From NCBI GenBank assembly GCA_000091205.1, contig AP006495.2: DNA of 64,000 nucleotides, one strand, 5' to 3'. The notes under the pieces are model-generated. The model was not told where the DNA came from. It saw only the letters and a program-made list of their open reading frames with translations, and did no database searches. The DNA is from Cyanidioschyzon merolae (lineage: Eukaryota). The first letter of the stretch is position 1, and each line of letters begins with the position of its first letter. Below are positions 2,412 to 56,828 of the stretch, piece after piece. The position numbers and the translations under genes were made by a program.

Positions 2412-3473
2412 TCAGGGGTTCAAATCATCTTGAATAATCTCGTCACCAAGGCCTTGCAGGCTCTCATCCTGATTCGTCACTAATCGCTTGAGTTCCAGGA
2501 AGCGCTGGCATTTGAACATAAGCGCAGGCGTCATCATGTCAAGCGCTGCGCCCCGTCCACTTCGACGTTGAGACTCCCCCAAAGTCACCGCTTCAATATC
2601 AGATGCTCGGGGACGTCTGCCCATTCGCGTATAGAAGCCATCGCTCCAGAGTTTGAGGTCCATAGCGAGTGCCGTGAACTGCCGTTTCAGCCGATCGAAG
2701 GCGTTCTCTTCTGAGGTGTCACTGTTAGTGCGGGCCTCGGTGCCTGCACGGTCTCCTCTTCGCTTTACCCAATGGCGGAGCATCGCTCGCCGAATCTTTT
2801 CTCGGGTCGCCTCAGAATGCTTCTTGCCGCGATTCCAGGCCGGTTTTCCCGACAAGGCCTGACGCATTCGTGCTCGAAACGCCGGATCTTGCCAACGTTT
2901 AGATAGGGATGCAGCTTGCTTTGCGATCGTCCCGTTCGACCGCCTGTTCTGCAAAAGCCGAGCGCGCAGCAGTGGGTCCGTCCAGCGTAATCGCATCGTC
3001 TCTGCACGGGTGCTGCTCGGCGTTCGTTTGCGTGCAGGTGGTGCCGTCGGGGACTTCGATTCCGGGTCAAGCGGCTCTGGTTCTGTGCACGCGGTTACTG
3101 CTGCAGCTGTTGGAGTAGACCGCCTAGCGTTCACAGCTTGTCGCTTCTCGTTCACGTCGTCAGGCACTGGAAAAAGCTGCCCAGAGAATACCACCCCAGT
3201 CGATTTACAGTACGTTTCAGGTGTCAGTGCCGTTGTGGCTGTGCCCACTACGTTTGCTAGGATATTGTGTGCAATTCGCGAGCTCCTGAAACCGAGGCTC
3301 TGTAAACTCGAGAGAGCTTCGTTCGCGTGTGGCACCCAACGCTGACCCTTTTGCAGCCCAAGGGTCAGGGCGGACGTCACGTCACGCGTTGTGTGTAACT
3401 TGCAGCGCAGGGGAACCGCTTTACGACCGCAGCGCTCCATTTTGCAATTGCTGAAAGCAGAACAAATGAACAT
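2412..3473 (-). CDS. Hypothetical protein with tandem W-x-DP-x-x-RAR motifs and a NUMOD3-like G-K-K-HSE-x-T-R-E-K-I segment
   Basis: Uninterrupted GC-rich ORF. The track start at 3491 is TTG, and the first ATG checked is at 3473. The repeats LRWTDPLLRARLL and KRWQDPAFRARMRQAL, followed by GKKHSEATREKIRRAM, resemble NUMOD3-type DNA-binding motifs. I know of no other homology. Confidence 0.35.
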   Translation of the reverse strand: MFICSAFSNCKMERCGRKAVPLRCKLHTTRDVTSALTLGLQKGQRWVPHANEALSSLQSLGFRSSRIAHNILANVVGTATTALTPETYCKSTGVVFSGQLFPVPDDVNEKRQAVNARRSTPTAAAVTACTEPEPLDPESKSPTAPPARKRTPSSTRAETMRLRWTDPLLRARLLQNRRSNGTIAKQAASLSKRWQDPAFRARMRQALSGKPAWNRGKKHSEATREKIRRAMLRHWVKRRGDRAGTEARTNSDTSEENAFDRLKRQFTALAMDLKLWSDGFYTRMGRRPRASDIEAVTLGESQRRSGRGAALDMMTPALMFKCQRFLELKRLVTNQDESLQGLGDEIIQDDLNP

Positions 3474-3614
3474 CACCGCAAAGGCACACAAAACGCCGTT
3501 CTAAACTCGAACGACGCCGACCGTCTACAGTAGTGGCGAGAAGCCCGCCCTTGACAAGAAATCTCCAACTGACGTGCGGACGCCTCCTGGTCTTGTTCGA
3601 CCGGCCACCTACTA

Positions 3615-7176: not shown

Positions 7177-8457
7177 ATGACTAAAGAGTGTAAAGCGAAT
7201 CTGGCTCGGACGAGCGCACGTCACGAGCAGCTCGCATCGAAGCCGTTTGGTTTCTGTTACACCGTGCTGCGGGAGGAGAACTCGCACCAAGCGCGTGACG
7301 AGCTTTCCGATGCAATTCGAACCCATTTTGTGAACGCGAAAGTCAACGAGCGGTCCATACCTTCGCGATTTTTCTATGACGACGCTGGAACAGCGCTGTA
7401 TGAACGCATCACCTGCACTGAAGACTACTATCTCACGCGATGTGAACGGGAGATTTTCCGTAAATACTGCGATCGGATATTGAACATCGCAGTTGGACTG
7501 GACGAAGATGCACCTATTCGATCGCACTCTCCCAATGAGAGAGCCTTACATATCATCGAACTGGGCGCTGGCGACGGACACAAAACAGCAGTGCTGGTGC
7601 AGCGTGCTCTGCAACGTGGCCTGCACATCACGTACCGTCCCATTGACATCAGTGAGCGCGCCATGACGGACTGTGCGGAGCGCATCCTCGCAACGCTGAG
7701 CGACCCCGAGAATGGTCATCAGCGTTTGGAGCATTCGAGTGTTGAAGCGCAGTTCACCTTCCATGGTATTGTGGGTGATTTCTTCGAAGGACTTGGATAT
7801 GCGCTGCGCGCACCAGGACGGCGTCTGCAGAACCCTGTTGAGGATCGACTACTGGCAAACGCGGGCAACGCGGGGTATGGTGCAGCTCCCGAGTCAGCTC
7901 ATGAGCATGCTCGGCACTTAGTCATGTTCATTGGATCTTCGATTGGCAACTTTGATCCCACGAACGCTATAGCATTCTGTAAGCAGGTTCGGAGCTTGCT
8001 GCAGCCTGCCAGGGATCACTTTCTTGTCGGGTTCGATCTGCGAAAACCTTATGCAATCATGCACCGAGCGTATAGTGACCGTGAGGGTATTACTGCAGAA
8101 TTTAACCGCAACTTGCTCCGTCGTGTGAACAGAGAACTTGGATCCAATTTCAATCCGGCGAAGTTTGAACATTTTGCCCAGTACAATGTTCGACTCGGGG
8201 CGATGGAGAGCTTCCTTGTCGCCACCGAGCATATGCGTATTGTTTTTCCAAATCTGGCGATGGACACGACGGCGTTGCCGACTGGGAACGAAATCGCGAT
8301 AGAGCTGCGCCCCTGGGAAGCCATCCATACGGAGTACAGCTGGAAGTATACTTTAGAGGACATTTCTGCGCTGGCACAGAAAGCTGGCTTTAGTAGGATT
8401 GCTGCGAATTTCTTTGATTCGAAGAACGGGTTTGTGGACAGTATCTTCGCTCCGTAG
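7177..8457 (+). CDS. EgtD-family SAM-dependent methyltransferase (L-histidine N-alpha-methyltransferase-like, Methyltransf_33)
   Basis: ATG verified at 7177. Motifs FFYDDAGTALYERIT..EDYYLTRCE, IELGAGDGHKT, FIGSSIGNF and EFNRNLLRRVNRELGSNFNPAKFEHFAQYN match the EgtD signature (FYDA.GS.LF..I..LPEYYPTRTE; FLGSTIGN; AFNRNVL..VNREL...FD...FEH.A.WN). Confidence 0.8.
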   Translation: MTKECKANLARTSARHEQLASKPFGFCYTVLREENSHQARDELSDAIRTHFVNAKVNERSIPSRFFYDDAGTALYERITCTEDYYLTRCEREIFRKYCDRILNIAVGLDEDAPIRSHSPNERALHIIELGAGDGHKTAVLVQRALQRGLHITYRPIDISERAMTDCAERILATLSDPENGHQRLEHSSVEAQFTFHGIVGDFFEGLGYALRAPGRRLQNPVEDRLLANAGNAGYGAAPESAHEHARHLVMFIGSSIGNFDPTNAIAFCKQVRSLLQPARDHFLVGFDLRKPYAIMHRAYSDREGITAEFNRNLLRRVNRELGSNFNPAKFEHFAQYNVRLGAMESFLVATEHMRIVFPNLAMDTTALPTGNEIAIELRPWEAIHTEYSWKYTLEDISALAQKAGFSRIAANFFDSKNGFVDSIFAP

Positions 8458-44994: not shown

Positions 44995-47900
44995 TGCGCA
45001 GCAAGTAGAGACGCGCTGAGCCAACAAGCTTGGAAGCGCAGCACCGAGTCGAGGATGCTTCGCCAATCAAGCATGGTTTAAGTAGGTATTTCGCCGAAGA
45101 TTCGAACTAAAATGCCTCTGAAATGGAAGCGCGCTCTCCATTTCCACGTTAGAAGGTATTGGGTTCACCATGTTCACACACTGAGTGTGATGCGCTCTGT
45201 ACCATCGACTCGTGGTGCTCCAAGATCCTTCCCGATGCATAGACTCGGCGCCTCAGGCCTGCTGCATTGGGAAACCGTATCATGTCAGTGCGTTACTGCA
45301 GACAAGAATCCAATGCTTGCTCCCTGGGAGACTGTTTTTTCCCGACGAAAGCCCTCAGAGTTTCAATACTTTGCCGACACGGCGCTCTGAATGCCGCTCT
45401 CGAACGTTCGCTCAGGACAAAGGCGCTTGACGGTACGGAAGCCCGAGTCCTTCGCGCATGATGAAGAAGGCTTTCAAGCGCAGATGACGATAGTGCTTGG
45501 GCGCATTTTGGCTGGCACAATCACCCCGTAACAAGCCTCGCAGCTTCGCCGTCTGACGTTTACTCATCGAACCGCAAACCATCGCATGTATCCATCTCTG
45601 TTTTACGCGCGACTTGTCTGCTAGTTTCAGCGCGTACTCTTGCTCATGATGCCGGGATATCGTCCCGAACTCATCGATGGGAATCGTGAACAATCGATTC
45701 CCACACTCGTTGCGTCCTCGAGTCCAGGACGACACAGTGCGGCCCGTGAGCGTTGCAGCAATGGCCAGCGCCATCACCACCACTGCCACCATCACTAAAC
45801 GACGTGTCGTGCCTCTCATGTCCGTTCCCAACTCAATCAACAAGTTGGCGAATGCTCACGTCTTGTCCCTGTGCAGTTGAAAGCTTTCGCGACCTCCGGG
45901 CGGTTGCAGCACTCTTGCCGAGGATGTTACGCCTAACCCATTCGGACGATCGAATCCTACATAAAGCGTGGCATTCCGTCCGGTAGCTCACGCTTTCCTG
46001 GGCCACTAGGATCAGGCTACAGCGCCCATAGGATGGGCCTCATGAAACCTTCGATATTTGCCTACATACGGTCTTGGTATTCGGTGTTGGTTTGATACAT
46101 TCGGAACCGGCGCTAGAGGTATTCTTATCGCCGGTGTGGAGCGTTAAAGCATCAAGATATTCTTGGGATACGCGTATGCAAATCGCTGGTCCTACGATGA
46201 AGACGTGTTGCACCGTTCGCGCCAAGCATCGGTTGCGTCGTCGCACGAAGGTTCGGGCACGAGCTTTGTTAAAAAACCGTGGACTATAGGTAGCTTTGTA
46301 TTCAGAATTCCTACGAATATTGGCGTGACGAAGTGCGTCGTAGCGAGGAAATCTCGGCGAGTCTTGCGCGCGTGGAAGGCAATACGATATTTCATGACGT
46401 GGTGGAGCTCAGTTTTTAAAAACTCCGCTTTTCATGCGTTTCCCTTGGAGGGATTCCAGAAAGGTGTTTCCGCTTCAATGGCTTTTCCTACCTGTCCCAT
46501 CTCGTCCTCTTTTGGTGATGATCTTTCTTTTCTTTCTCCCTAGGTTTCTACTGTTCCCCCGTTACCTCATTGCATGGCATGGATAAAGCAGCCATTCTCC
46601 AGGTAAGATACTCATCACGGGACTCAGACCCATTGAATTGAGTGTTGCACTGAAGTTTGCAATTTCCACGCTTGTGTCTACCATGCGCGAGGGACCTTTT
46701 TGTCACCTTGTCAGTTGCGAAAAACGTCCATGAACTGAAGCGCAACTTTCCGCTCCCTCGAGCGCACGAGTAGAGGAGCAACAGAGCTACTCAGAGCGAG
46801 AGTGGAACTGGAGAAGAACAATTTGCCAGAGAACGGTGCCACGGATGCGAGCGACGCGTCGATTCATCCGCGAGCGCCTGAATCGCGTTTTCGCAACAGA
46901 AAAGATGCGTTCGCGTGCATTGAACTCGGCAGCACTGGCTTGCACGATGAGCAACTTGCCGCCAATCTCAACAGCGCACATCATGATCGCTGCTGAGTGA
47001 ACGCAAGAGACGTACTCTAAGAACAGGATAGGGGAATACGGGAAGGAGGTACCACCTCGAGGTGCATCGACGAAGGATACGATGTTGAGCGATACTGTTC
47101 GTTTGGCGATTCGTAGACGAGCACACAATAACATCGTCGCAGGGGCTCGTGTTGTCGTGGTACTCGCATGTCTTTTCTTTGCCAATGGCGGTTTTTCCCT
47201 CATTGAATACGCATATGCTAGAGGTCAACGATGTATCCTGAATGCTATCTGATTGACTGTGGCGAACGCGTATTGTTTCGGTCAGATACGTTCGTGTTTC
47301 AGGGCAAAATCGATCAGATAAAGTTCCGTGCGTGACGGGTTCCCAGAGGGGTGCGCATTTTTTGTTTGTCCATCTGCGTCTCTCCATCATCGTTGGGAGC
47401 ACTGGACGGATACTTCACATTCTGCGGCTTCTTTGATGGTATTTCTCAGAAAAACATATGGTTTGGAATGGATTGGCAAGGAGACAGTCGTATAGATAAT
47501 GTCTGATACGTTCTGTATTCGATGCACGACGTTCAGGATAAGGGCGACGACAAGGGTGATTTTCATCAACCGTCTGACAGGATAAGGACTGCCATGGACA
47601 CTTGGGATCCTTTTTCTCCCGGGAGCGCGGTGGGTGCCTCAAGTCTATCAGCGACCTTGCTCCAATCTATCGGATACATCTTCTTTTGCTAGATACCCGC
47701 TGGAAACCATGCAAAGACAGACATTGCATCCTGAACCAGACATTCGGCAAGTCATTGCTCTGCGTATACCAGCGAATGCCATAGCGACTGTACGTAGCCC
47801 GGACGCGGCAACTCAGTATGTTGACGTCAGGCGACGGATGTCGAGTTCACCTTGGCCAGTGTGATCATCACAGCAATATCCAGGTACTGAAGATATCGTT

Positions 47901-50327
47901 TCCGCACGCCGCGTCAGCTAGCACCATGACACCCGCGGGGCCGCGACTGCCAGATCGCTTTCAGCGTTGCCTCGGTCAACGCTCCGGCGCATGTGGTCTA
48001 CTGTCGTTGCCTCCGGAGTCGTGCTTGTGTCGTGTGATGATTAGCATTCGCCAATACCCATAGCGTTGCGTAAATGAAAACCCCTACGCTAGCAACACTT
48101 CCCTGTATTCAGTGCTCATGATGGACGCCACTTCAGTGATACTCGTGTTCTTCTCGTCTGGACACGAGGTTTCATAACGTCTAAAGTTGTTGATGGGCGC
48201 TAGATCTACAGTATCTCTAATATTTACCCGTATTGATTATGTCTATTTCGAAATCTTCCATCAGGACCTGCTATTCATGTTCGCATCGGAGGCGACTGTC
48301 AACCCTATGGTTTATCTCAGCAGCCCATGCCGGCGACGCCGTTGGCTGAAAGCGATGGAATATAGGGAGTCTGGTGTCAGCCTTGAAAACAAAGCTGATA
48401 CCAGTTTGTTCTTGGACGTGTGCCTCGAACTGAACGTCACTTTGACGGAGCGACCTTCTAGGGATCGCCACGCTGGAATCGGGTCTAGGCGAGCGGCGAG
48501 ATGCACGTTGCGTCTGCCTCTCACGCAAGACACAGTTCCTGTACGCTTCGATATGGGCACTGGTGAGCGATGGCGTACAACAATATGTCGCCGCCGTCGC
48601 CAACAACGTCCGCGGAACAGATGAAGTTGTCGTGTTCCGTCAAAGATTGCTAGGTTTGGTAGAAAAAATTGCCTACTCCAGCACGATCAAGAAAGCATTG
48701 ATTGCGAGGCGTCCTGGCCCGTATCCGATCTCCAAAAGGTCCATCATAGAGATACATGCAGGGCAATGAGGTATGTATTCTGGACGGGGTCGTACACTAC
48801 CCATGGGATATATCGGGTACGAAGCACTGGTACAGTTCGTAAACCAAGACGAATGCGGTTCGATTCGGTGACGCCATCCATGGTATCACGAAGAACAGCA
48901 CTTTCACAGAATATAGTGTCTTCTTGCTCGTGTCGAAACGTGAATTTCGGATGCGGGAAATCAGGTGGACTGACGGGCAATCAACTCGTTGAGCGCTTGT
49001 GCTTTCTCCAAGGGGTGTTCTGTGTGGTGCGAGCGCCTAAACACGAATGTTCAGTACAGCGTGCAATGCTGATGGCCGCGTTTGCGCCCCATCGAATGGC
49101 AAACCAGCAAGCTCTTGCATGCGAGTGAAAACTTGAAGAATCCCGCGGGAGAAGATTGTCAGACGCATCGTTCCATGCAGATCAGCAGATTTAGTCGCTC
49201 GTATCGCACTGGCGTCCGACTCGCTGAATTTCGCGGTCATTAAAAAATCCCCGAGGTTTTCGTCTCCATACATGGCGCACTCGCACGGCAAGTGCAGCGA
49301 AGGAGCCACAGTTCAAGCATAGAAAATGACGCGAGCAAGCGACATGCGCCCGTCGTCAATGAAACGCGCGTTGTTTCCGAGAACCGTACGTTTTCAGGGC
49401 GCCTACGGCCTCAGATGAGTGTGTGATAAGTTGAGTTCCATTAAAAATCACGACGGAATGAGCTGATGAGATACCTGAAGCGTTCTGATACAGAAAACCC
49501 GCTCCTTGGGGTACTGGTAGTGGAGCTTGGGTTCGGCCCGCAGCTCAGTTCTCGTCAGTGTTGCGTGCACGCGTCGCTGGACCAGCTTGAAACGCAGCCA
49601 TTAAAAAGTCTTCTTGGATACAGTAACGGATACATCTATAGGTGATCAGTCTTGTACCGACAAGAGCTGGGTAAAGGATCCTCAAGAGTCGAGAGTACGC
49701 TCTCGGCGCAGATGCCTACAGAGCACTGCATGCTTGTAGCGTTGGCACTACCGCACTTGAATTGCAAGTCAAGCGCGGATTTTCTCTAGATAAAGTCAGT
49801 CGATTCCTGAAATCATGGAACTCGAGAACGCCAGGCTGCAGTGTGCAGGCTAGTCCGATAGAACTCTAGAGACCACAGCAGTTCCCCAGTGTGTTCTATG
49901 CCGAAGAAACGATCCGCTCGTTTCGCGAAGTTTCTAACCAATGCTATACGCGGCACATGATCTGCACGATGCGATCATGAAGACATCTTGGGTCAAGAAG
50001 TCCTGAAGTTCACGCAGCGCGGTGACAAACTGAAGTCGCAGCGCGTAGCCAAGCTGCAATGTTGCAAATATGCTTGCAATGGACGGAAGCGCTCGCAGGA
50101 GGCAGCGTCGGCGACATGTCCATTCCATACATTCATGTCGCAAAAGTATCAACAACGTCTAATAGCGTATGCAGCGTGCAGCATCGCCCTGGATGCGACA
50201 TGTCCTTGAAATGCATTGATGTCGCAAAAGCATTCACTCGATCAGATCGCTGGCGCTGTTTTTCTGCGGGTAGCTGCTTGCGCGTACCACAGTTGCTGGC
50301 CTGAGTGCCCTGTGTCGCGGTGATGCT

Positions 50328-53556: not shown

Positions 53557-55247
53557 CATCGCTCGCCGCGCTCTCCTGGACACCATCCAGCAGAGCGCTT
53601 CGCCGAGCGGCCTCGCGGTACGTACGGGAATCGACCTGTTGTCCAGCGTCATTGAGGGCGTCGCGTTTTTGTCTACCGTTTTGCTGGCGCGTCTGTACGC
53701 GGGTGTCGATGCTGAACCTATCCCTAATTTTGACGAGGGCAGCGTACACCGCAGCGGCTTTTGATAGGAGAGGTGGTGATAGCGAAATCGGGACGCATGG
53801 GTAACACGCTCTCTCATGTGTGACGCATGCTCATTCCGGAGCGAGACTGGTGGATGAAAGGCAGTTCCAATGCATAGACGTGTCGCACATTCTCTCTTGC
53901 CTGTCGTGTGTGAGCGTTGTGGACCGGAGAGCGCGCGGCGACGGGTGCCTCACATGAACATACATACACTGGAGCGCATCGACGCATACATGCAGGTACA
54001 CAAGCAAGCATCCTAGATGGAGTTGGCATTTGTTGACAGTATCCGGCTCCGAACTAACGAATGCTAGACTGGTTGTATGGTCGCGCGGGGTGCACCAATC
54101 CGAAAGCACCATTGTGAGGTTGTGTGGCGCTGCAAGAGCCTTCGCGTAATGCGCGCAGCAGACCGGCACTCGCAACATGGTGAACATCTGCCCCGTGCCT
54201 AGAGGTGCATCTTGCAGCGGCTCTTCGCGAAAAAAGAATGCGTGTATTCGGTTGTCTAGGTACAAGGGATCCATACGGTCTTGAACCCTTTGCTTTAGGA
54301 TCTCTTGCTACGCATACGCTCGATCACTTGAAGCAATCGACATCGGGGTGTTTCACATGGAGCTCATGAAATGGATCGAGGTTACGCAGTATGCCATCAA
54401 AGAGACTCAATCGGTTCGGTCAGCTGAAATTTTTCAGCCGCTCGCGAGCATTGACGAGTCTGATGCAGAACATAGATACGAGGCGCACGCTTCGCCATGG
54501 AAAGAAAACAACTCTGCTCGCAGACTGTTTGATCTCTGTACATTAGAAGTAAACTGGAGCTTCCCTGTGCACCTGGGGAGATCGGCTCCGTGCGTCGTCT
54601 GCACAGTAATCGACAAATATCCAGAGCATTGGATAACATGTTATCGACTCTCGAACGACACAATCTAGAGACTCGCTTTCGTATAGATATGTAGATACGC
54701 ACTATGGCAGTGAAACGATCAAGTCCCGCGATAACAGCGTAAATGAATACCCGCCTGCAGACGCCTCCCAGCCTTTTTTGACCAGCGGCTTCTTATCGGT
54801 TCGCGTTTCTCCTTGGACATTTCGATCCTGGGAGTTTGCCCAAGAAAATAGATCGCGTCAGCTCTTCGGATCTCATCTGCAACATCATACATCATCTCAT
54901 ATAGCTGGCGATGTTGAAGTCTGTATTCACGAGATCCGCGCGTTTATTGCCTCTGGTTGAACGCACCATTGCAAGGATTCCTCTAATTCTTGCGCTCTGT
55001 GCTACGCCAGTATCATCATTGTCCCACTGAGCAAACGCCTTCTCTCGCGTATCGCCCTTCATATCGCTCGCCTCCTTCCTCTTCGTCACTCGCTCTTCTT
55101 CGCTCGCTGGTCGGCGAGAACTGGATTTTGCATTGTTTGTTTCTGTCAGGGAGCGACGTCTGCCTCCAAGATCCCTGTCTTTCATCTTCATACCTCCCCC
55201 TTGGATTTTCTATTTCTTCACAAGAACGCACTCGGAACACATTTGCT

Positions 55248-56828
55248 ATGCACTGCGATAAAGCATTTGGTTACACGCATCTGCCTATGGAACACAATTC
55301 AGGTGAAACACTTGAACACACCCAGGTGCACTGCCGGCACGCAACTACGCTGAAAGCGCACGTGGAGCTGCAGTCGACTTTCACTGGACCGAAGCTCCCT
55401 GGCGAGCCAACAAGCATGCAGGGAACTTGTTCAGTAGCTACAGAACGTTACGGCTTCGTCGCACCGAACCAGTTGCTTCAGCAGAACAAGCGCTGGCGAA
55501 CGCAGGCTCTTCGGCGAGCAGGCGTCTGGGACGTTCCCGAGGCCGTTGTTTCACTGAGAACGTTTCGGGTTGCTCGGAACGCGGGCAGTGGGCGCGTGCC
55601 CCGGGCCGGCTTCATACGTCGAGTGCTGGCACTCTCTGTGCGACACGCTCGGGAAGGGCAAACGCTTGACCCCAGCGCTGCGCCACGGTCCTCTCTAGAG
55701 TCGGGGACCTGGTTCAAGCTTATTTGCGGAGCTTCGTTCAACGAGGTGACAGAGATTGCTCCGCTCACGAGAGACTATGCGCTAGCAGGTGCTGATTGCG
55801 TAGACTGCGCGGCCGAGCCAGCCGTTGTTCAAGCAGTCCTGGACGGACTAGACGAGGCGGAGCGTCGGTGGCGGTGGACCCTCACCAGTGACTCGTCTTG
55901 CGCCCGTCCGGATCGATTGACGAAGAGCTTCGCACGTCCATGGATCATGGTGTCAATTACCGACGATGAGATGGAACCGCACTTTCGAAAAGCGCGTGTG
56001 CACGTCGACGCGCACGCACCTTGCTGGCAATGCCCTGCTCCGTGTGCTCAACTTTGTCCAGCGGACGCCCTCACGTTGCCAGCGACGGCGAAAAACGTGA
56101 ACCAATTCCAAATATTCGGCATTTCGAGCACCCGATGTTATGGTTGTGGGCGCTGCATCCCCGCCTGTCCGTATCATTTGATTGAGACGCACTCGAGCAA
56201 GCAGACCCCACAGCAAGTGATGGCACTCGTGCGCAATTATCCCATCGATGCAGTCGAGGTTCACACGCGTGATCCGCTTAGCGAGTCGTTTGCTGCCCTC
56301 TGGTACAGCGAAATCGGGCGCACCCTGCGAGCGACGATGAAACTCATCGCGATTAGCATGCCGGAGCCCAATGACTGGAGTGTTTTCGAGTACATTGCGC
56401 GGCTCGTGTACGGGGCGCACGTCGACGAGTCGGGAACTGTGCAGGAGGCACCAGCGACGCCACCGAGTACGCCCATTCTTCTGTGGCAGTGTGATGGTAA
56501 GCCTATGACCGGTGATCTGGGTGCACCTGCCACCACTCGGGCGACCGTGCGCTATGCCACCAGCTTAGCGGAATACTTTCGAAGGAATCCGCACTTGCTT
56601 GCCGCACGGGGATTCATTCAGTGTGCTGGCGGTACCAATGCCCATACGATTCCGCTCCTTGAGGGCGTGGACGGGGTCCACGGGGTAGCTTACGGTGGCT
56701 ACGCGCGTCGACTCGTTGCAACCGGCGGCTATGAGGCTGCGCAACGGTTGGTACAGCAGGTGAAAACGCGCTTGGTATCTCCGAAAGCTGCCAATCGAGA
56801 AGCTGTGCAACCCGAAACGAGTCTGTAA
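55248..56828 (+). CDS. Fe-S protein with an LdpA-like N-domain and a 4Fe-4S ferredoxin motif; long N-terminal extension
   Basis: KLICGASFNEV...YALAGADCVDCAAEPAVVQAVLDGL recalls the KLICGAS signature of cyanobacterial LdpA as I remember it. A canonical CxxCxxCxxxCP (CYGCGRCIPACP) is present. The track start at 54990 is TTG, and the first ATG is at 55248. The ~150 aa before the conserved block are S/T/R-rich and transit-peptide-like. Confidence 0.45.
   Translation: MHCDKAFGYTHLPMEHNSGETLEHTQVHCRHATTLKAHVELQSTFTGPKLPGEPTSMQGTCSVATERYGFVAPNQLLQQNKRWRTQALRRAGVWDVPEAVVSLRTFRVARNAGSGRVPRAGFIRRVLALSVRHAREGQTLDPSAAPRSSLESGTWFKLICGASFNEVTEIAPLTRDYALAGADCVDCAAEPAVVQAVLDGLDEAERRWRWTLTSDSSCARPDRLTKSFARPWIMVSITDDEMEPHFRKARVHVDAHAPCWQCPAPCAQLCPADALTLPATAKNVNQFQIFGISSTRCYGCGRCIPACPYHLIETHSSKQTPQQVMALVRNYPIDAVEVHTRDPLSESFAALWYSEIGRTLRATMKLIAISMPEPNDWSVFEYIARLVYGAHVDESGTVQEAPATPPSTPILLWQCDGKPMTGDLGAPATTRATVRYATSLAEYFRRNPHLLAARGFIQCAGGTNAHTIPLLEGVDGVHGVAYGGYARRLVATGGYEAAQRLVQQVKTRLVSPKAANREAVQPETSL

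Follow-up and report, generated by a model that had tools for sequence, protein, structure and literature searches.

A standalone EgtD-type methyltransferase gene of Cyanidioschyzon merolae and its probable place in a split ergothioneine pathway

What does a methyltransferase of the ergothioneine pathway do when it stands unfused, in bacterial style, in the nuclear genome of a red alga? EgtD is a two-domain class-I S-adenosylmethionine (SAM)-dependent methyltransferase that places three successive methyl groups on the alpha-amino nitrogen of L-histidine, giving hercynine (N-alpha-trimethylhistidine). We analysed a 64,000-nucleotide stretch of Cyanidioschyzon merolae contig AP006495.2 (assembly GCA_000091205.1), called the window below. 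The original prediction, made from the letters alone, had recognized an EgtD gene in it and had proposed either a split, bacterial-style ergothioneine pathway or a hercynine-type product made for another purpose. The gene in question is:

7177..8457, plus strand: whole gene for a predicted standalone EgtD-type SAM-dependent L-histidine N-alpha-methyltransferase (open reading frame (ORF) listing, exact protein match, PF10017 match and AlphaFold model).

We consider it probable that its product is the C. merolae orthologue of EgtD and feeds an ergothioneine pathway divided between separate EgtD and EgtB proteins. That the protein methylates the alpha-nitrogen of histidine, whatever becomes of the product, is very probable.

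The gene is an intact, uninterrupted and intron-less ORF encoding 426 amino acids (aa). It begins at the ATG at 7177, the first downstream of an upstream stop codon, and ends with the stop at 8455-8457; the antisense ORFs overlapping it are 69-168 aa long. An exact-sequence look-up returned C. merolae 10D proteins for three window ORFs, which confirms the eukaryotic host. The EgtD-type ORF is among the three, and its protein is identical to BAM81036.1 / XP_005537072.1 / UniProt M1UTD2. In NCBI, BAM81036.1 goes by 'hypothetical protein, conserved'; in UniProt and at JGI it already carries a label of the histidine-specific or L-histidine N-alpha-methyltransferase type. The gene is already publicly catalogued with the right domain label, and its product belongs, as a eukaryotic representative, to a family already known. 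We found no discussion of it in the open-access literature searched. The unfused EgtD in a eukaryote, which had attracted attention to the locus, is therefore real but less surprising than it had seemed, given this public label and the standalone homologues that exist in Cyanidium and Pyropia.

Membership of the family is clear. Pfam finds a single domain, PF10017, with an expectation value (E) of 7.7e-75. The match scores 252.2 bits, where the gathering cut-off is 23, and spans positions 12-299 of the 304 in the profile:

7345..8439, plus strand: Methyltransf_33 domain, aa 57-421 (Pfam match).

The best NCBIfam model is TIGR03438, the egtD equivalog, whose 223.7 bits lie by far ahead of EasF at 122 bits. 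Among solved structures, sequence comparison found relatives only in the EgtDs of Mycobacterium smegmatis and Mycobacterium tuberculosis (E ~1e-29), and bacterial proteins named L-histidine N-alpha-methyltransferase share 33-40% identity over 84-95% of the query. We conclude that the Methyltransf_33/EgtD-type match is real and far beyond chance. The original description of a full-length, well-conserved match has to be qualified by some 90 extra residues and by a TIGR03438 score below the cut-off of 290.9 bits.

We next consider the catalytic residues. M. smegmatis EgtD residues 11-300 were recovered from HMMER alignments, and sites were mapped in 4PIM numbering. The SAM- and histidine-site positions follow published EgtD structures, the histidine pocket of M. 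smegmatis EgtD comprising Tyr39, Phe47, Tyr56, Gly161, Asn166, Tyr206, Thr213, Met252, Glu282 and Ser284. Positions 252 and 282 are independently flagged as specificity determinants by PDB entry 4pip, which is titled 'EgtD-M252V,E282A in complex with tryptophan'. In the C. merolae gene the corresponding segments are:

7375..7431, plus strand: N-terminal part of the substrate pocket, aa 67-85, with Y67 (=Tyr39), Y75 (=Phe47, now Tyr) and Y84 (=Tyr56), by mapping to M. smegmatis EgtD.
7555..7587, plus strand: SAM-binding motif I, IELGAGDGHKT, aa 127-137 (G130, G132, K136), invariant in 120-154 aligned homologues.
7927..7953, plus strand: FIGSSIGNF, aa 251-259, with G253 (=Gly161) and N258 (=Asn166), alpha-amino contacts, both invariant across homologues.
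8071..8217, plus strand: central pocket segment, aa 299-347, with Y299 (=Tyr206), T306 (=Thr213) and GAMESFL, where S345 stands at Met252, by residue mapping.
8326..8349, plus strand: HTEYSWKY, aa 384-391, with E386 (=Glu282, imidazole contact) and S388 (=Ser284, carboxylate contact), invariant in alignments.

All SAM-site residues are identical to those of M. smegmatis EgtD (G130=G86, G132=G88, K136=K92, D157=D113) and invariant in the alignments. Eight of the ten pocket residues are likewise identical (Y39, Y56, G161, N166, Y206, T213, E282, S284), the differences being F47Y and M252S, with a Met two residues before the latter in the motif GAMESFL. Ser252 is the majority state, present in 136 of 154 family representatives and in all of 121 close homologues (121/121). 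Both Tyr47 and Ser252 occur in the EgtB-fused protein P0226, and Ser252 occurs in the EgtB-fused P0176, P0269, P0288 and P0166, as well as in the three closest bacterial homologues inspected, each of which has egtB (DinB_2+FGE-sulfatase, ~423 aa) directly upstream and scores above the egtD equivalog cut-off. The pocket variant is therefore that of enzymes found in ergothioneine gene sets, and the substrate-binding residues, which the original prediction had singled out as decisive, are conserved, so that on this point the EgtD assignment is not refuted. A phmmer comparison with 4pim had left Glu282 and Ser284 unaligned; this was an artefact of the 11-aa insertion just upstream, and MAFFT puts HTEYSWKY on the EgtD motif.

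The same residues bear on whether the protein could be a Methyltransf_33 paralogue acting on another substrate, in tryptophan or tyrosine betaine synthesis or in an EasF-like reaction. Such enzymes do exist in the family, the EasF model TIGR03439 (dimethylallyltryptophan N-methyltransferase type) matches with E=2.4e-35, and pocket positions 47 and 252 are unlike those of mycobacterial EgtD. However, the 122 bits of the EasF match, which rise to 162.5 after loop removal, do not reach the cut-off of 205.55 and lie far under the egtD score, and the imidazole-reading Glu282 and Thr213 are kept together with the rest of the pocket. The engineered EgtD that accepts Trp took both M252V and E282A (4pip title), and E282 is kept in the C. 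merolae protein; F47Y and M252S, for their part, are found in EgtB-fused proteins as well. We regard a different substrate as very unlikely, and prefer histidine.

An AlphaFold2 model built on a 120-sequence alignment has a mean predicted local distance difference test score (pLDDT) of 89.4 and a predicted template modelling score (pTM) of 0.89. When it was compared with the PDB by Foldseek, the top 15 matches were all EgtD (E ~1e-30, target-normalised TM 0.85-0.91), and the next fold class followed at E ~1e-8. Relative to bacterial EgtDs, the cyanidiophyte protein carries ~90 additional residues, made up of a 21-aa N-terminal extension and four insertions:

7177..7239, plus strand: cyanidiophyte-specific N-terminal extension, aa 1-21, modelled as a helix; absent from bacterial EgtDs; pLDDT ~76.
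7495..7536, plus strand: insertion 1, aa 107-120 (alignment); pLDDT down to ~70.
7699..7746, plus strand: insertion 2, aa 175-190 (alignment); pLDDT 61-81.
7813..7905, plus strand: insertion 3, aa 213-243, the largest (31 aa; alignment); pLDDT 56-67; Pyropia is longer at the same site.
8263..8295, plus strand: insertion 4, aa 363-373 (alignment); pLDDT ~70.

Low confidence in the model (pLDDT 56-81) is confined to the extension and insertions, as would be expected of surface loops. At the aa 213-243 loop, the ~447-aa standalone EgtD homologues of Pyropia yezoensis and related Bangiales (P0163 / P0309 / P0211) have an acidic, Ser/Pro-rich insertion of ~55 aa. Insertion at this site may be a common red-algal feature, or the loop may simply tolerate insertions.

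Does the methyltransferase have a partner? The C. merolae protein ends directly after its single domain, and neither the DinB_2 + FGE-sulfatase fusion of fungal-type Egt1 nor any EgtB-like sequence downstream of the stop was found, so the gene is standalone, as had been proposed. The absence of an EgtB-like gene from the window was likewise borne out. Pfam scans of the 20 largest other window ORFs gave no DinB_2 or FGE-sulfatase domain, and when nine EgtB modules were compared with the window by tblastn, E was nowhere better than 0.76. With two aminotransferase modules added, and the window searched together with the +/-10 kb flanks of cyanidiophyte orthologues, nothing was better than E=0.027. 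The same Pfam scans gave no rhodanese domain, no search having been aimed at EanB, the partner of EanA in the anaerobic ergothioneine pathway.

A partner has been reported elsewhere in the genome. In a 2015 survey (PMC4659905), C. merolae CMR147C (M1UW85) appears together with Galdieria sulphuraria M2X023 among 'SUMF-like' proteins that resemble Schizosaccharomyces pombe Egt1. According to the same survey, the red-algal members consist of DinB_2 + FGE-sulfatase only and are without PF10017, which the green-lineage and fungal ones also carry. As described there, CMR147C has the architecture of a standalone EgtB and is not a fused Egt1 that would make the EgtD copy redundant, an outcome that the original prediction had named as fatal to it. 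As to the product, Galdieria sp. NS3 contains 35-39 mg ergothioneine per 100 g dry weight, autotrophic cultures included (2024, PMC10815428), and this points to de novo synthesis in a cyanidiophyte; some ergothioneine has been reported from Porphyridium as well (cited in PMC4659905).

These observations have to be set against the possibility that hercynine, or mono- or dimethyl-histidine, is itself the end product, serving independently of ergothioneine, either as a compatible solute or metal ligand where the alga lives in heat and acid, or as a precursor of selenoneine. The EgtD gene is indeed unlinked to EgtB or a C-S lyase, both in the window and within +/-10 kb in four related genomes; no ergothioneine is reported for C. 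merolae in the literature searched; and the score lies under the egtD equivalog cut-off. Missing linkage says little, however, because eukaryotic pathway genes are seldom clustered. An EgtB-type gene has been reported in the C. merolae genome (PMC4659905), the sister cyanidiophyte Galdieria accumulates ergothioneine autotrophically (PMC10815428), and wherever we found a context for a close homologue, EgtB was either next to it or fused with it. We therefore think it unlikely that the pathway stops at a methylated histidine. Of the two outcomes first proposed, the split ergothioneine pathway is favoured by the reported CMR147C partner and by Galdieria ergothioneine.

By analogy with EgtD, the split pathway would run as follows. 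SAM would be bound in the Rossmann domain (IELGAGDGHKT and D157) and L-histidine between the two domains, where its alpha-amino group would be held by Y67, G253 and N258, its carboxylate by Y299 and S388, and its imidazole by T306 and E386. Three methyl transfers to L-histidine would yield hercynine. A separate EgtB-type iron sulfoxide synthase (CMR147C/M1UW85, encoded outside the window) would couple hercynine oxidatively with cysteine or gamma-glutamylcysteine, and a pyridoxal phosphate (PLP)-dependent C-S lyase would then turn the coupling product into ergothioneine. The gene organisation is most likely a split, bacterial-style one inside a eukaryote, unlike the fused fungal Egt1.

Several points weigh against this assignment. 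The native protein misses the TIGR03438 equivalog cut-off, and after in-silico deletion of the lineage-specific insertions it is still 8.5 bits short (282.4); the model is calibrated for prokaryotic (bacterial and archaeal) annotation, and the shortfall is mostly due to these insertions. Position 252, one of the two changed to re-engineer EgtD specificity, is Ser instead of Met. The EgtB partner in C. merolae is reported by one survey (PMC4659905), with no mention of CMR147C found in other papers in the literature searched, and a profile of six eukaryote-like EgtB modules run against 5.8 billion proteins gave only bacterial and protist EgtBs among the 120 matches listed. No C-S lyase candidate and no Galdieria orthologue of the C. 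merolae EgtD gene were identified. The literature searched reports ergothioneine for Galdieria and Porphyridium and not for C. merolae itself; as for red-algal ergothioneine pathway genes, it yielded only general reviews without such genes. The function proposed for the C. merolae protein is a prediction from sequence and modelled structure.

The genomic setting speaks to how long the gene has been in this lineage. The gene content of the window is eukaryotic and algal: a NOL9/CLP1-like kinase, an SDS22-like leucine-rich repeat (LRR) protein, an acetyl-CoA transporter and a 2722-aa multidomain cytosolic acetyl-CoA carboxylase, together with HMG-CoA synthase, TIP41, ESCRT-II, PFK and an LdpA-like Fe-S protein. 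The GC fraction around the EgtD gene is 0.53-0.55, like that of the window as a whole. The gene order NOL9 - hypothetical - Methyltransf_33 - LRR - acetyl-CoA transporter - acetyl-CoA carboxylase is kept in three other lineages:

JGI hot-spring cyanidiophyte: syntenic orthologue, 66% identity to the C. merolae protein.
Cyanidiococcus yangmingshanensis (F1559_003014): syntenic orthologue, 62% identity.
Cyanidium caldarium (KAK4536131.1): syntenic orthologue, 48% identity.

This synteny means that the EgtD gene was already present before these lineages diverged. It has long been part of the nuclear genomes of cyanidiophytes and neither stems from contamination nor was inserted recently.

The first search, in which the nearest non-algal relatives were bacterial at 33-40% identity, had suggested bacterial contamination of the assembly, or else a gene acquired horizontally very recently and perhaps without function. 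Typical eukaryotic genes nevertheless lie on both sides, GC content is like that of the surroundings, and in four cyanidiophyte lineages, with identity as low as 48%, the ORF is uninterrupted and keeps its synteny; conserved synteny rules out contamination or artefact, and the probability left to this explanation as a whole is negligible. Nor do the trees point to a bacterial donor. Neighbour-joining trees with bootstrapping were built from 121 close homologues and from 154 representatives at 50% identity. The five cyanidiophyte sequences group together in 100/100 bootstraps, and no sister group of this clade, bacterial or other, is supported (best candidate 17/100, Pyropia 7/100). We therefore make no claim on horizontal transfer, and the bacterial origin implied by the original prediction is not shown by the phylogeny. 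The fifth member of the clade, P0005 (L009:454-1818, 454 aa, Logan SRR31152685), is an EgtD of 43% identity with poly-Gly/Ala low-complexity insertions and a long Ser/Ala-rich N-terminus.

In protists and fungi, at least three fused arrangements of these modules exist: EgtD-EgtB, EgtB-EgtD and aminotransferase-EgtB-EgtD. The first order is seen in P0249 and P0260, and the second in P0226, P0288 and the Mantamonas protein P0166. In P0269 (L010:4185-8000, 1271 aa) and P0176 (1160 aa), Aminotran_1_2 (PLP), DinB_2/FGE-sulfatase (EgtB) and Methyltransf_33 (EgtD) lie in one polypeptide, which, judging by domain content, could hold a whole ergothioneine pathway. The contig neighbours of P0269 are of eukaryote type (ATP11, a mitochondrial-processing-peptidase-like M16 protease and a Solute_trans_a transporter). 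It is conceivable, if rather doubtful, that red algae keep an ancient unfused eukaryotic EgtD/EgtB pair that was the source of the three or more protist and fungal arrangements through independent fusions or, alternatively, that the red-algal loops, notably that at aa 213-243, bring about a non-covalent association of EgtD with EgtB, or regulation of a kind that bacteria do not show.

If the split ergothioneine pathway is correct, a C. merolae protein still listed as hypothetical by NCBI gains a function, and ergothioneine in cyanidiophytes and other red algae gains a genetic basis; it also means that eukaryotes use unfused EgtD and EgtB besides the Egt1 fusion. C. merolae is genetically tractable, so the pathway is directly testable there. 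Cyanidiophytes such as Galdieria are, moreover, under development as ergothioneine-containing biomass. The current understanding of the ergothioneine pathway is not overturned.

Other features of the window were recorded in passing. A 359-aa ORF at 2412-3491 (minus strand) has as its only recognisable feature a NUMOD3 DNA-binding motif (E=1.4e-6), and a gene of similar size without a recorded Pfam match, flanked likewise by NOL9 and the methyltransferase, is present in Cyanidiococcus, Cyanidium and the JGI cyanidiophyte. The 612-aa protein encoded at 54990-56828 (plus strand), in which Pfam finds the LdpA C-terminal and LdpA Fe-S-binding domains, is a nuclear red-algal homologue of the cyanobacterial light-dependent-period (clock input) protein. 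Amid otherwise dense genes, ~5 kb at 45000-50300 are without an ORF of >=180 aa, with GC ~0.51 against ~0.55 elsewhere and no tRNA or Rfam match; no RNA genes were found in the window by Rfam or ARAGORN.

Several known systems invite comparison. Like the EgtDs of M. smegmatis and M. tuberculosis (PDB 4PIM, 4PIN, 4UY6, 7SCF), the C. merolae protein is standalone, has a single Pfam domain and adopts the same two-domain fold in the model, which matches EgtD crystal structures at target-normalised TM 0.89-0.91. It differs from them in its ~25% identity in structural alignment, in F47Y and M252S, which are conservative pocket changes, and in its extra residues; the gene is eukaryotic, nuclear and outside any egtABCDE operon, unlike mycobacterial egtD.

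The closest group outside algae and protists consists of EgtDs from bacterial two-gene egtB-egtD operons (P0006, P0009, P0013; 38-39% identity), with relatives named from Myxococcota, Polyangiaceae and Legionella. They share with the C. merolae protein GAMES(Y/F)L, Ser252 and a standalone form accompanied by a separate EgtB. In contrast to the algal protein, they are 329-341 aa long, lack the insertions and pass the TIGR03438 cut-off at 297-317 bits, and their genes are co-transcribed with egtB, whereas in the alga the presumed partner is encoded elsewhere, without linkage.

Fungal Egt1 (Neurospora crassa, S. pombe Mug158) and the Egt1-like EgtD-EgtB fusions P0249 and P0260 are eukaryotic, contain the same Methyltransf_33 module and have the same expected product, hercynine; Egt1 carries DinB_2 + FGE-sulfatase on the same polypeptide (PMC4659905), whereas the C. 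merolae protein is unfused. Nearest of all are the red-algal standalone homologues of Cyanidium caldarium (KAK4536131.1), Cyanidiococcus (F1559_003014) and Pyropia yezoensis (EP00170_P001699), which are unfused, 421-447 aa long and identical in their pocket residues. In the loop that leads from the central strand to the FLGSS motif they, too, carry insertions, and identity to the C. merolae protein is 48-62% for the cyanidiophyte homologues and ~42% for Pyropia.

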